A stretch of DNA of 64,000 nt from Eledone cirrhosa (Eukaryota), in contig OZ024742.1 of NCBI GenBank assembly GCA_964016885.1, forward strand, positions 273,482,001 through 273,546,000, read 5' to 3'. Shown here one piece after another: positions 968 to 44,240 of this stretch. The stretch's first letter is position 1; every line of letters starts with the position of its first letter. The position numbers and the translations under genes are program-made. The notes under the pieces are model-generated. The model did no database searches and was not told the DNA's origin. It worked only from the letters and a program-made list of their open reading frames with translations.

Positions 968-1022
968 GATATATATATATATATATATATATATATATAT
1001 ATATATATATATATATATATAT
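968..1022. repeat. (TA)n microsatellite
   Basis: Direct reading; forms the left flank of the 1021-2109 element. Confidence 0.98.
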
Positions 1023-1095
1023 ACATTATGAAGAGAGAAGAAACATTTAGATATAATTAGTAATAAAATGTATCATACCTAAACTGCTCCTAAAT

Positions 1096-1185
1096 TCCTC
1101 GACTACGTAGTTTCGTGGCATAAACAAAAACAATATATCATAAAGATATAGAGTCCCTGCGAGGTCTGCCGACTTATCAAGAGGA
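1096..1185 (-). ncRNA. Type I hammerhead ribozyme, U3:A8 core variant with long stem II insertion
   Basis: Minus strand: TCCTC-TTGATAA-GT(C)GGCA...TGCCAC-GAAA-CTACGTAG-TC-GAGGA. Stem I is 5 bp, stem III is palindromic, triplet is GUC. Confidence 0.85.
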
Positions 1186-1690
1186 TACCTCATTTTACTA
1201 GCCTCAAGAACGCGTCTACACGACGTGAGAAAGAATCCCAAAAGGCGGAGGGGGAGATAGTCACGCGATATAACGGTCGAGAAACAGAGCTAAGCCTCTT
1301 ATAACCACGAAGAAAATACCACGGAGGCGGAGGGGGTATTCATATCGAGGCCGCAGAAGAGGTGGTGAAGAAGGCTAGAAGTATGAGTAATGGAAGCTTT
1401 CCAGTTGTCCCCACACTTCAAAGATTGCTCGACCAGAGGGAGTTATTAACAATATATTTAGAAACACACAGATACATGCGGACACACACATATATACATG
1501 AATGCATCCGCACCCAACTGTGAGTTAAGGGTGCCAACTTCACCGATGTTGCTCAATGAATGACCGGGACAGACCAATTCAGTTGAACCAGACTGAACCA
1601 GTATCAGAGTTAAAAATACATTATGAAGAGAGAAGAAACATTTAGATATAATTAGTAATAAAATGTATCATACCTAAACTGCTCCTAAAT

Positions 1691-1780
1691 TCCTCGACTA
1701 CGTAGTTTCGTGGCATAAACAAAAACAATATATCATAAAGATATAGAGTCCCTGCGAGGTCTGCCGACTTATCAAGAGGA
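1691..1780 (-). ncRNA. Type I hammerhead ribozyme, second identical copy (U3:A8)
   Basis: Same motif as 1096-1185, shifted by 595 nt. Confidence 0.85.
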
Positions 1781-2109
1781 TACCTCATTTTACTAGTCTC
1801 AAGAACGCGTCTACACGACGTGAGAAAGAATCCCAAAAGGCGGAGGGGGAGATAGTCACGCGATATAATGGTCGAGAAACAGAGCTACGCCTCTTATAAC
1901 CACGAAGAAAATACCACGGAGGCGGAGGGGGTGTTCATATCGAGGCCGCAGAAGAGGTGGTGAAGAAGGCTAGAAGTATGAGTAATGGAAGCTTTCCAGT
2001 TGTCCCCACACTTCAAAGATTGCTCGACCAGAGGGAGTTATTAACAATATATTTAGAAACACACAAATACATGCGGACACACACATATATACATGAATGC
2101 ATCCGCACC

Positions 2110-2220
2110 ATATATATATATATATATATATATATATATATATACATACACAATATGTTGAAGAGCTAGTACACTAGAGAGAGAGAGAGAGAGAGAGAGA
2201 GAGAGAGAGAGAGAGAGAGA
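2110..2220. repeat. (TA)n and (GA)n microsatellites
   Basis: Direct reading: (TA)n about 2110-2143, (GA)n about 2177-2220. Confidence 0.95.
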
Positions 2221-2274
2221 GTGCGCCATCAATAAAACAGGGAAAACCACCTGTGTATGGAATCTATAACTATG

Positions 2275-41019: not shown

Positions 41020-41167
41020 CTCTCTCTCTCTCTCTCTCTCTCTCTCTCTCTCTCTCTCTCTCTCTCTCTCTCTCTCTCTCTCTCCCTCTCTCTCTCTCTC
41101 TCTCTCTCTCACTCACTTTCTCTCTCTCGCTCTCTCTCTCTCTCTCTCTATATATATATATATATAT
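41020..41167. repeat. (CT)n(TA)n microsatellite
   Basis: Direct reading. Confidence 0.97.
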
Positions 41168-41968
41168 AAAGACTATTTGAGTTTATAACTCTCTCTATAT
41201 AATATATATATATAAATATATATATATAAATATATATATATATATAATATAGAGAGAGTTATAAACTCAAATAGTCTTTTACAATTAAATAGCTCAAAGA
41301 AAGGAATATTTCTGAGCTGTGTAATACAAATGAATATATGATAGAGATAAACACTGATACAAGTATAAATGTGTTTGCATTGCAAATGACCAAGTCAGCT
41401 AGATTGAAAAATACTAATTAAAATAATACGGTTTGCCTGTCTCGATTTAAAATAATAAATCACTAAAAACAAACCTATATTGGCAATAGCCGTGATACCT
41501 GGACGAATTTAAAATTTAAAATTTAAAATTTGTTTCGCAACAATTAAGTGAAAGTTCCCATTCCTGTGCTCTTCTGCAGGTATCCAGAAATTGGTAAGTT
41601 TCACTTCAAAATATTTAAGAAGACTGAGAGAAATGTGTTGTTGAAAGCACATGTGTCACAGCGCCTAGCACGTCCCATACTCGTGCCGCTAAAAATAGCA
41701 GCCGGTTTTATGGGACTAAAAATTAGCTCAACTCATGGAGCCGATAATATTATATATAGAGTTATAAACTCAAATAGTCTTTTAAAATTAAATAGCTCAA
41801 AGAAAGGAATATTTCTGAGCCGTGTAATACAAATGAATATATGATAAGGATAAACACTGATACAAGTATACATGTGTTCGCATTTCAATCTAGCTAACTT
41901 GGTCATTTGAGATGCGAACACATGTATACTTGTATCAGTGTTTATCCCTATCATATATTCATTTGTAT
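41168..41968 (-). mobile_element. Non-coding retrozyme-like partial tandem (503-bp period) with inverted end pieces
   Basis: 41258-41382 is repeated at 41761-41885; 41885-41968 is the reverse complement of ~41326-41408; 41168-41200 is the reverse complement of ~41248-41280; hammerhead at 41494-41584. Confidence 0.7.
41494..41584 (-). ncRNA. Type I hammerhead fold with CAGAAGA (U4-to-A) core and 8-bp stem I
   Basis: GATACCTG-CAGAAGA-GCACA...TG(T)TGC-GAAA-CAAATTT..AAATTCG-TC-CAGGTATC; GUC triplet. Confidence 0.78.
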
Positions 41969-42030
41969 ATATATACATATATATATATATATATATATAT
42001 ATATATATATATATATATATATATATATAT

Positions 42031-42923
42031 CATATTACGTAAGTTGGATGGATGATTTTGGTTTCATAGAAACCTATCGGACGTATTGCAAAGTATCGTT
42101 CGATATGTCCAGGTCAGTTGTCTAACCTGATTAGTTTTTTAATTGCTTTTGGTATAGTGTGGCTAGGTCAAGCTGTCTAAACGTATGTTATTACTCTAAG
42201 GCCTACCTTATTGAGTGCTTTGATGCTCATTCCCAATTGTAGATCGTTAGCTAAGCCACAGCCAAAGCTTCGATTTTACTAAGCTTCCACTTGTATTATT
42301 ATCTCCTAGTCTTAATGATTAACTAATTAATTTAATTAGACAATTCCAGTGATTGGTTAATTATTAAGGTTTGTTTAATAACGTCTAGACGAGAGCTTTC
42401 CTTTCGGAATGTAGAACGAAATTGATTTCCCTTGTTCACACTTTGAATTTACGCACCAAAAACCGGTGGTTACTTCTCTTGTTGCAAATAACACGTGACA
42501 GTGAAACACTGAGAGCTGCCAACGTTAGCAGTTCGACGTTACATTCCACACAGGCATGAGGTATAGAACGAAATTTCCTGTTGATGACGTGAATCCACTA
42601 TTCGATCATGGAACACCACAGGCTTACATATTACGTAAGTTGGATGGATGATTTTGGATTTCATAGAAACCTTTCGGACGTATTGCAAAATATCGGTCGA
42701 TATGTCCAGGTCAGTTGTCTAACCTGATTAGTTTTTTCGTTGTTTTTGGTATCGTATGGCGAGGTCTACGTGCCGCAATTTTCAATTTGACAAGCTGTCT
42801 AAACGTAAAACGTATGTTATTACTCTAACGCCTACGTTATAGAGTGTTTTGCGGCTAATTCCTAATTGTAGGTCGTTAGCTTGGCCACAGCCAAAGCTTC
42901 GATTTTACTAAGCTTCCACTTGT
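42031..42923 (+). mobile_element. Non-coding retrozyme-like partial tandem (repeats 42031-42294 and 42627-42923; 596-bp start-to-start)
   Basis: Direct repeats with indels, (TA)n on both sides, large hammerhead at 42577-42710. Confidence 0.72.
42577..42710 (+). ncRNA. Large type I hammerhead with UUGAUGA (U3:G8) core and long stems II and III
   Basis: CCTG-TTGATGA-C-GTGAATCCA...TGGA(T)TTCAT-A-GAAA-C..TCGGACG-TATT-gcaa-AATA-TCGGTCGATATG-TC-CAGG; the upstream repeat has better-paired TATCGGACG/CGTTCGATA. Confidence 0.72.
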
Positions 42924-42980
42924 TTATATATATATATATATATATATATATATATATATATATATATATATTATTATAAT

Positions 42981-43106
42981 AAATTGAAGTGAAGGCAACT
43001 GGTGCATGTGTTTCTTATTGGCAACGTGACCCTCCCAAAGTATAACAATATCGGTTTCAACACACGGTTTCAGATAAAGAATCTTGCTAAACAAATTCAG
43101 AAACGA
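42981..43106 (+). repeat. Solo tail fragment of the 26470-27455 PLE family between (TA)n tracts
   Basis: 42981-43050 matches 27385-27453; 43083-43106 is the reverse complement of ~26471-26497. Confidence 0.7.
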
Positions 43107-43153
43107 TATATATATATATATATATATATATATATATATATATATATATATAT

Positions 43154-44240
43154 ATAAAGAATTAGTATATCTACCAACATATATATACAGATGCATACCT
43201 ATGCTAGCAAATATATAGGTTTTGTCTTAGTAACTTTGTGGTTCAATGCAAGGGGATGCAGAACAATTATATGAACGACGTAAAATAATAAAGTTATAAA
43301 AATTAACTTACTTACTAAAATTTCACTCCAACTAATTAGTTTCTGAAAGGGAATAAACATGGTACCGAATGGAACAACATGGAGAAAAATCCTTTCAGGG
43401 AGATCTATTCTCAGCTAAGTTCCCAGGCAATGCGTGGACACAGGGAACTTATACAAAATAATTCAGTGGATGGAAAAAAAGCAAGCGAGGACTAAATTCC
43501 AGGACATTGAAAAAATCACTGCCTACTTGGTCGGTGGCAAATTCAAAAGAATCAATCACGGGACATCGAGGTCAATCAGTGAGGAGTGGGGTGCTAATAA
43601 GACAGTAGCCTGACTATTACTATGAACCATAGTAGTAGTATTGGCAAATTTTTGCTCAACAAAATAATTTGGAGATAATTATAAAGAATTAGTATATCTA
43701 CCAACATATATATACAGATGCATACCTACGCTAGCAAATATATAGGTTTTGTCTTAGTAACTTTGTGGTTCAATGCAAGGGGATGCAGAACAATTAAATG
43801 AAAGACGTAAAATAAGAAAATTATAAAAATTAACTTACTTACTAAAATTTCACTCCAACTAATTAGTTTCTGAAAGGGAATAAACATGGTTTCCGAATGG
43901 AACAACATGGAGAAAAATCGTTTCGTCATCAGGGAGGTCTATTCTCAGCTAAGTTCCCAGGCAATGCGTGGATACAGGGAACTTATACAAAAATAATTCA
44001 GTGGATGGAACAAAGCAAGCGAGGACTAAATTCCAGGACATTGAAAAAATCACTGCCTACTTGGTTGGTGGCAAATTCAAAAGAATCAATCACGTGACAT
44101 TGAGGTGAATCAGTGAGGAGTGGGGTGCTAATAAGACAGTAGCCTGACTATTACTATGAACCATAGTAGTAATTTTGGCAAATTTTTGCTCAACAAAATA
44201 ATTTGGAGATAATTATAATGAATTAGTATATCTACCAACA
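43154..44240 (-). mobile_element. Non-coding retrozyme-like tandem, ~2.05 monomers (starts at 43154, 43681, 44215; 527/534 bp)
   Basis: Direct tandem repeat; intact hammerhead at 43853-43936 and core-deleted copy at 43326-43402. Confidence 0.78.
43853..43936 (-). ncRNA. Type I hammerhead, canonical core, extended stem II
   Basis: CTCC-CTGATGA-C-GAAA(CG)...CCTTTC-A-GAAA-CTAATTAG-TT-GGAG; palindromic stem III; GUU triplet. Confidence 0.8.

Follow-up and report, generated by a model that had tools for sequence, protein, structure and literature searches.

Five non-coding tandem elements, lying in a 64,000-nucleotide (nt) stretch of the Eledone cirrhosa genome (assembly GCA_964016885.1, contig OZ024742.1, positions 273,482,001 to 273,546,000; the whole stretch is called the window here), are, by criteria that can be tested in sequence, animal retrozymes without long terminal repeats (non-LTR retrozymes). 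Such retrozymes, of 51-972 bp, have been argued to be non-autonomous derivatives of Penelope-like elements (PLEs) (10.64898/2026.07.22.740005; PMC7229834). The reading preferred here, to which a probability of roughly 60% is given, is that the five families represented (F1 to F5) are high-copy retrozymes with a long-armed hammerhead fold and end hairpins of the Hydra type, and that an enzyme of Hydra-clade PLEs writes their predicted monomer circle into (TA)n tracts.

The initial annotation of the window had described the elements as non-autonomous, with a PLE RT (reverse transcriptase) going repeatedly round an RNA of about one unit, a view supported by a PLE-type insertion footprint, by multi-unit arms and by the absence of a joined open reading frame (ORF) in 130 sampled loci. 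Its further proposal of an undescribed class is not supported, since animal non-LTR retrozymes are already described and enlarged hammerheads are also found in the autonomous Hydra-clade PLE of this genome.

The five families and their insertion footprint

Self-alignment of the window established that the five elements and their annotated periods (595, 610, 503, 596 and 527/534 nt) are real, with copy-to-copy identities of 99.0, 97.1, 93.0, 82.1 and 95.2%, respectively (coordinates in Table 1). Most of the annotated limits stood, but element 2 reaches 23094; similarly, 596 nt is the period of the window copy of element 4, which carries a deletion, the F4 family unit being of ~617 nt. The element ends are permuted tandem units, the GC content of the family units is 0.33-0.42, and the absence of ORFs was confirmed, the longest ATG frame on the family units being of 37-60 aa. 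The elements had also been said to share no obvious sequence, which does not hold for elements 2 and 4: they are collinear homologs (z 8.9 end to end and 7.7 with the hammerhead removed, against z<=3.9 and <=2.6 for the remaining pairs), so that four lineages at most are represented. F2 and F4 are part of a superfamily with units of 572-678 nt. Nor does a convergent monomer size mark a class: more hammerhead tandems in the flanks have periods of 305-701 nt, and 500-610 nt is therefore part of a continuum, with the long-armed hammerhead families grouping at about 480-680 nt. Further hammerhead tandems were recorded at loci L081, L144, L182, L184, L291, L293, L298 and L329 (periods 310, 322, 485, 658, 527, 488, 483 and 701 nt).

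Genome searches with each monomer gave 1994, 2700, 3059, 3411 and 3445 first-look candidates per family. About 40 candidates were scored per family unit, segments of <40 nt or <90% identity (80% for F3 and F4) being dropped, and the insertion set came to 165 after removal of 25 loci repeating an insertion; the best-scoring (longest) copies served for the footprint, homogeneity and unit-index tests. The copies are dispersed and high in number, and are not single-copy local duplications: the 3' ends of the arms are fixed, with a (TA)n or TA-rich flank in 204/227, and the 5' ends are scattered, only one of the 227 arms having its 5' end at the predicted hammerhead cut site. The annotated contact with (TA)n holds, thus, for 3' ends, but the 5' end of element 5 adjoins a long interspersed nuclear element (LINE). 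The longest arms extend over 4.1 units in F1 and 9.7 units in F2. An apparently fixed 5' start in F1 and F5 was discarded as a search-window artefact.

The view that the elements have no linked reverse transcriptase (RT) ORF, and are not simply the pseudo-long terminal repeats (pLTRs) of PLEs, was upheld when the 1.5-2.5 kb upstream of position-ordered pattern matches were probed with the PLE frames of the window and with a complete Hydra ORF: a PLE ORF was joined in 0/60 and 0/70 loci, 16 of the 60 being one array, two resembling chance matches and many copies being too short for the test. An ORF-like frame upstream of locus L266 proved to be a microsatellite with a nested fragment.

Two fixed 3' ends, A and B, lie 166 nt apart in F1, 80 nt in F3 and 114 nt in F5, and two-armed insertions pair A with B in 17/17, 21/21 and 14/18 cases, respectively (52/56 in total). 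On sequence grounds, this arm pairing matches the one-sided tail of PLEs, a feature equated with two sites at which the RT starts (PMC8557442; PMC11167929).

Units within an insertion resemble each other more than units of different insertions, divergences within and between insertions being 0.0031/0.0064 in F1, 0.0104/0.0376 in F2, 0.033/0.049 in F3, 0.090/0.105 in F4 and 0.027/0.034 in F5. Frequent alleles occupy every unit of an insertion in 12/12 cases in F1 and 273/291 in F2, while insertion-private alleles fill all units in 8 cases in F1 and 20 in F2. Single-unit variants are not inherited by position in F1 (0/38 shared), F3 (3/8 pairs at the same index, 4.0 expected) or F5 (3/9, 4.5 expected). 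Moreover, the cut site is crossed at least twice by 33/56 arms of F1, 38/39 of F2 and 86/228 overall. Unit homogeneity together with multiple crossings thus means that each insertion passes a one-unit bottleneck, and the simplest reading of these patterns is that the bottleneck template would be a circle, as in the model put forward in PMC4209133 and PMC7229834. The predicted cut lies 60-260 nt upstream of the arm 3' ends, and a cut linear monomer would therefore give only a short cDNA. The predicted circular folds exceed block-shuffled controls in stability (20 shuffles, z -2.9 to -6.5), and helix I of the hammerhead stays unformed in them (P<=0.05).

Loci L245-L260 (G000:C1:13091102-13100455) belong to a very young family related to F2, in which the unit is of 615 nt and the core is U3-A8, with more arrays on C1 at 36.02, 36.13, 44.27 and 49.83 Mb; its arrays of 16 or more near-identical units are the best substrate for a rolling-copy test. 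F1 pieces of 97-99% identity were also seen in runs X4, X5 and X6, labelled organisms B, C and D, for which close relatives, transfer or carry-over are possible sources, together with partial and divergent F5-like pieces. The X5 and X6 contigs, of 620 and 621 nt, hold one F1 period plus about 30 nt at a depth of about 8, which fits a closed tandem or a circle, of DNA or RNA, alike, and they were not used as evidence.

Long-armed hammerheads and bulged end hairpins

The hammerheads were first read by eye from the family majority sequences, on the strand with the fixed 3' end. One enlarged type I hammerhead per monomer, as annotated, is found in all five family units (helix II of 59, 79, 33, 77 and 54 nt in F1 to F5), but not in every unit of the window: two complete hammerheads are present in element 1, one each in elements 2, 3 and 4, and one in element 5 beside a core-deleted 3' copy. 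Positions 10.1/11.1 are mismatched as A.A in F2 and as C.A in F4 and F5, and position 4 is U, C or A among the F3 relatives. Precedents exist for U3-A8 cores and for a weak or mismatched helix II base (PMC3088659, PMC4209133, PMC8557442 File S2). CUGAUAG was considered as the F2 core and rejected in favour of the U3.G8 core, helix I being missing. Lunse et al. 2017 reportedly treat PLE hammerhead variants, which may bear on the core variants found here.

This large hammerhead population escapes standard searches. No hammerhead was among the 72 Rfam matches (E<=1), most of them microsatellite-driven microRNA matches; a strict canonical descriptor gave zero matches, and a first relaxed descriptor found element 1 only. 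The final relaxed descriptor, loosened after the reading by eye so as to admit these motifs, gave 283 matches across the 867 kb of loci retrieved, the Markov-4 control yielding 1, 0 and 0 per 200 kb. Genome-wide, patterns for the F2/F4, F1/F5 and F3 architectures gave 4928, 25548 and 200 matches against 5, 1799 and 0 with reversed-pattern controls, in all about 28,000 matches in excess of control.

Judged from compensatory change, the hammerheads are under structural selection. Twelve F2/F4-type sequences, most of the listed relatives having been chosen for U3-A8, gave a covariation score of 0.370 with 81% paired cells and 31 double changes (0/500 shuffles as high), the core and part of helix I being fixed by the search pattern and helix II being free; RNAalifold, run on them without guidance, returned a three-way junction of helices I, II and the base of III. 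The helix II bases of 12 F5-type sequences, in turn, are paired in 67/72 cells, with 10 double changes (0/1000 shuffles). More long-armed hammerheads, with a helix II of 61-104 nt, were seen in flanking elements at L027, L194, L072, L076, L193, L191 and L197.

A second shared feature is a bulged hairpin, in which a 2-nt bulge on the 3' side separates a 4-bp stem from another stem whose sequence is free; it starts 2-9 nt behind 8/8 main F1-F5 ends and 2/2 Hydra ends under a pattern tuned on those ends; the background per position is 4.6% in real and 1.3% in shuffled units. Compensatory forms occur, with GUUC/GAAC in F5 and UCUC/GAGA in F4. The hairpin is absent behind both ends of one young Neptune-type PLE family (0/2) and behind the five short-hammerhead ends checked. 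An unguided end survey returned it in 32/125 junction groups, among which 5' ends, duplicates and ends from other clades are mixed. F2 and F4 each have a second hairpin (22216-22241 and 42822-42845), chosen post hoc and standing outside the ten ends counted; its 3' strand can also pair with a downstream GCUCA, and this alternative fold, conserved in both families, may explain the rare use of site B in F2 and F4.

Donor, template and competing readings

The candidate donor clade is represented in the window by a broken PLE copy at 13765, whose family has 59,482 first-look candidates and whose ORF carries RWK, DKT and CxCX5C, known as Hydra-clade motifs (PMC8557442). The 3' untranslated region (UTR) of this family holds a hammerhead with an 81-nt helix II and follows the order hammerhead, site B, hairpin, site A, hairpin; among 47 loci, A and B are combined in 14/14 two-armed insertions, 26 are single-ended (14 A, 12 B) and 7 unclassified. 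Examined as partners of Hydra-clade PLEs, F1-F5 were found to have the (TA)n target and the shared end hairpin, with 5' truncation throughout, and with inversion and the one-sided tail in F1, F3 and F5, while 3' similarity to an autonomous family was lacking in the one Hydra family compared. Mobilisation of F1-F5 by Hydra-clade PLEs is, on this basis, likely. In a Hydra subfamily (L182 and L185, 3' UTR) a U4C core (CCGAAGA) was noted, with the long helix II kept.

The control donor is a Neptune-type family (window copy at 26452-27455; L371-L410) with 36,396 first-look candidates, 98-99% protein identity and intact ORFs of 1200-1300 aa, the longest being of 1302 aa. It also targets (TA)n and has two ends, with a UAUCG-type motif behind them, and a tandem period of about 4.28 kb; an A/B end count for this family was confounded by internal (TA)n and set aside. 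No homology of F1-F5 to it was found. Short-hammerhead families of 420-480 nt (L085, L109, L013, L183) have a UAUCG start behind one end, as in the Neptune-type PLE, and this sharing suggests that retrozymes may be split between two donor clades. Stubs of the 3' part of the Neptune-type family lie between (TA)n tracts at 42972-43105, between elements 4 and 5, and at 17983-18106.

According to the preferred mechanism, a copy longer than one unit would be transcribed, cut at successive hammerheads and ligated into a circle of 500-620 nt; with an 8-nt palindrome for helix III, F1 and F5 would need double hammerheads for cutting, and F2, F3 and F4 could cut singly. Folding predicts that helix I is blocked within the circle, which would therefore persist. 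The Hydra RT-endonuclease, probably as a dimer, would then bind the two bulged hairpins and break (TA)n, reverse transcription starting a few nt ahead of a hairpin, with sites A and B each serving one of the two DNA ends. The outcome is visible in the DNA, as single or head-to-head A+B arms with the cut site crossed one to nine times, scattered stops and one haplotype. A purified PLE protein has been reported to start internally at two RNA sites and to extend both DNA strands, and was modelled as a dimer (PMC11167929).

Several observations weigh against this mechanism. In isolated folds the full hammerhead is dominant for F3 only (helix probabilities 0.99/0.77/1.00), the probability of helix I falling to 0.06 in F2 and 0.12 in F4; U3.G8 in F2 and F4, U4A in F3 and C.A or A.A at 10.1/11.1 may lower the predicted activity, and self-cleavage was seen in 1/9 retrozyme dimers assayed elsewhere (10.64898/2026.07.22.740005). 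Insertion in vitro had no need of hammerhead cleavage, unprocessed RNA being the main substrate (PMC11167929), and hence crossing of the cut site needs no circle. Frequent alleles fill every unit less often in the older families (F3 39/62, F4 21/41, F5 15/24), and same-index sharing in F2 is mildly above expectation (16/33 pairs vs 11.2). The use of best-scoring copies, with no random sample, favours long insertions. As regards the donor, blastn found no sequence homology of F1-F5 to the Hydra family (50 loci of one family) beyond nested insertions, low complexity and short motifs; inverted arms are nearly absent from F2 (0/39) and F4 (1/29), though both carry two hairpins; a second Hydra-like family in the window has a weak hairpin or none by the same rule (0/2); and the hairpin finder, besides its tuned pattern, takes the best stem and has one Neptune-type family as sole control.

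The circle is the point on which the strongest alternative differs. The same elements could be served by the same Hydra enzyme on uncut read-through RNA of a tandem parent, with slow or late hammerheads and with arrays regrown by template jumps or by unequal exchange between terminal repeats. Internal priming makes a free 3' end needless, and in vitro it was mainly uncut RNA that served as substrate (PMC11167929); variant cores, the poor isolated folds of F2 and F4 and the F2 same-index excess point the same way. Such a linear template is nevertheless judged rather unlikely, since insertion-private variants are present in all units (8 in F1, 20 in F2), inverted arms carry the same haplotype and can be longer than two units themselves, positional inheritance is missing in F1, F3 and F5, and compensatory change maintains the hammerhead helices across subfamilies. 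A different donor, with Neptune-type, Naiad or several PLE clades serving the retrozymes and a hairpin that is general or partly specific, appears improbable: the very young Neptune-type family shares the (TA)n target and the two ends, and F2 and F4 lack the two-armed form, but Neptune-type ends have no hairpin and a different motif behind them, one common to some short-hammerhead families, and the family is not homologous to F1-F5. Least probable is that the units are pLTRs or stubs of autonomous PLEs, or satellites arising at the DNA level. Hydra 3' UTRs do share the order hammerhead, site B, hairpin, site A, hairpin, and local tandem amplification of pLTRs has been proposed by Li et al. (10.64898/2026.07.22.740005); this explanation is already largely refuted by units which close on themselves, ORF-free and of constant period at dispersed loci, by the joined-ORF counts of 0/60 and 0/70, and by fixed A/B ends in (TA)n, the mark of fresh insertion.

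Building on the preferred reading of Hydra-driven copying from a circle, a broader picture is advanced tentatively, and with more doubt than conviction. Tens of thousands of long-armed hammerhead circles, invisible to Rfam, might parasitise one PLE clade through an RNA code, two bulged hairpins loading a Hydra RT dimer and both cut (TA)n ends priming on the same circle, while retrozymes with other motifs would use the Neptune-type enzyme. If true, this would be the first assignment of a retrozyme to its donor by an RNA signal, and the range of active hammerhead cores would widen to include U4A/U4C as well as C.A or A.A at 10.1/11.1, combined with a helix II of 30-100 nt. The mobilising enzyme and the circle as template are stated open points for animal retrozymes (PMC7229834; 10.64898/2026.07.22.740005). 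In a single genome, named substrates whose units each have two mapped start sites occur beside a candidate recognition hairpin, a candidate donor clade and a clade that can serve as negative control, and both points are therefore testable by the published in vitro PLE assay (PMC11167929). Retroelement biochemists would take an interest in a short RNA signal by which a telomerase-like RT could write any given circle into (TA)n.

Relation to known systems and neighbouring features

With the animal non-LTR retrozymes (Cervera and de la Pena 2020, PMC7229834; Li, Clavereau and Pollet 2026, 10.64898/2026.07.22.740005) F1-F5 share non-coding tandem units with one type I hammerhead each, a GC content <50%, co-occurrence with PLEs, the apparent absence of an LTR and a unit size inside the 51-972 bp range; PLE mobilisation through a circular template has already been proposed there. 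They differ in their helix II of 33-79 nt and variant cores, the hammerheads described there being canonical or minimal; in units exceeding the 170-400 nt circles seen on northern blots; in a strict (TA)n target with two fixed, hairpin-bearing 3' ends; and in a helix I predicted to be blocked in the circle, whereas it is predicted to be free in most circles there. Plant LTR retrozymes, with a type III hammerhead in their LTRs and a 4-bp target duplication, are unlike F1-F5, which have type I hammerheads, (TA)n flanks and tandem units.

Hydra-clade PLEs (Craig et al. 2021, PMC8557442) resemble F1-F5 in their (TA)n target, in a hammerhead placed before the 3' end with an unpaired or mismatched helix II base, and in tandem and 5'-inverted insertions with a one-sided tail. 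F1-F5, however, have no ORF, their tails are of 80-170 nt instead of 30-40 bp, and the helix II published for Hydra elements does not exceed about 25 nt, an arm of 53 nt being given for Selaginella PLE-X1 only; the end hairpin is not mentioned in the accessible part of that paper. The same source describes non-autonomous Chlamys elements such as MRC1, which are likewise partners of PLEs with pLTR-like redundancy and multicopy head-to-tail insertions; those share 3' sequence with autonomous families and mostly lack canonical hammerheads, whereas F1-F5 share structural motifs only with the one Hydra family compared. The Poseidon element PAc (Frangieh et al. 2024, PMC11167929) provides two internal start sites which explain the tail, extension of both DNA strands, an AT-rich target and a predicted dimer; unlike F1-F5, it belongs to another clade, starts in an AC-rich stem-loop within the ORF and uses autonomous RNA as substrate, with hammerhead cleavage dispensable in vitro. 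Finally, the minimal hammerheads of PLEs (Cervera and de la Pena 2014, PMC4209133) include the U3-A8 variant and a palindromic helix III implying dimeric cleavage, as in F1 and F5, and gave rise to a circular-template model, but their helix II is of 7-8 bp and their conserved G10.1-C11.1 is C.A or A.A in F2, F4 and F5; U4A, found in F3, is not mentioned in the accessible part. In a literature search covering sources outside subscription journals and bioRxiv supplements, no retrozymes combining a 33-79-nt helix II with these cores and no clade-linking hairpin were found, and the accessible part of PMC13282606 mentions no ribozyme.

Table 1. Elements, predicted hammerheads, end hairpins and candidate donor PLEs in the window (window coordinates)
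Feature	Position	Strand	Details
Element 1 (F1)	1021..2109	-	1.83 units of 595 nt; 3' end A at 1021 in (TA)n
F1 hammerhead, 3' copy	1097..1184	-	U3-A8 core; helix II 59 nt; 8-nt palindromic helix III; predicted cut 1101/1100
F1 hammerhead, 5' copy	1692..1779	-	intact
F1 bulged hairpin behind end A (internal copy)	1551..1610	-	hairpin pattern
F1 bulged hairpin behind end B	1427..1443 (second copy 2022-2038)	-	hairpin pattern
Broken Hydra-clade PLE copy (candidate donor clade)	13765..16390	+	RT and C-terminal GIY-YIG; 3' UTR of this copy without hammerhead region
Element 2 (F2)	22141..23094	-	1.57 units of 610 nt; 3' end at 22141
F2 hammerhead	22382..22517	-	U3.G8 core; A.A at base of 79-nt helix II; 34-nt helix III; predicted cut 22387/22386
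F2 bulged hairpin behind main 3' end	22645..22745	-	hairpin pattern
F2 second, rarely used hairpin	22216-22241 and 22826-22851	-	chosen post hoc
Truncated Neptune-type PLE (control donor)	26452..27455	+	short hammerhead, core at 27245
Short F3 stub	41168..41205	+	ends at site A; faces element 3 across (TA)n
Element 3 (F3), direct arm	41244..41888	-	1.29 units of 503 nt; ends at site A
Element 3, inverted arm	41883..41968	+	ends at site B
F3 hammerhead	41494..41584	-	U4A core; 8-bp helix I; helix II 33 nt; helix III 29 nt; predicted cut 41502/41501
F3 hairpin behind end A	41726..41741	-	behind end B: 41292-41317 and 41795-41820
Element 4 (F4, homologous to F2)	42031..42923	+	about 1.45 units; 3' end at 42923
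F4 bulged hairpin behind main 3' end	42302..42394	+	UCUC/GAGA, compensatory to GCUC/GAGC in F2
F4 hammerhead	42577..42710	+	U3.G8 core; C.A at base of 78-nt helix II; 35-nt helix III; predicted cut 42706/42707
Element 5 (F5)	43154..44243	-	2.05 units of 527/534 nt; 3' end A at 43154
F5 hammerhead, 3' copy	43326..43402	-	core carries deletion
F5 hairpin behind end A	43654..43675 (also 44188-44209)	-	behind end B: 43241-43264 and 43768-43791
F5 hammerhead, 5' copy	43853..43936	-	canonical core; C.A at base of 55-nt helix II; 8-nt palindromic helix III; GUU cut site

Among the neighbouring features of the window, a 1.9-kb near-perfect palindrome (91%) with a GIY-YIG fragment at 23293-25216 represents a two-armed PLE insertion. 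At least four decayed copies of LINEs (endonuclease, RT, zf-RVT), not all oriented alike, occupy 44241-62754, the first of them adjoining the 5' end of element 5, and a frame on the + strand at 53085-53591 gives a weak MBD (methyl-CpG binding) match of 21.7 bits against a cut-off of 21.

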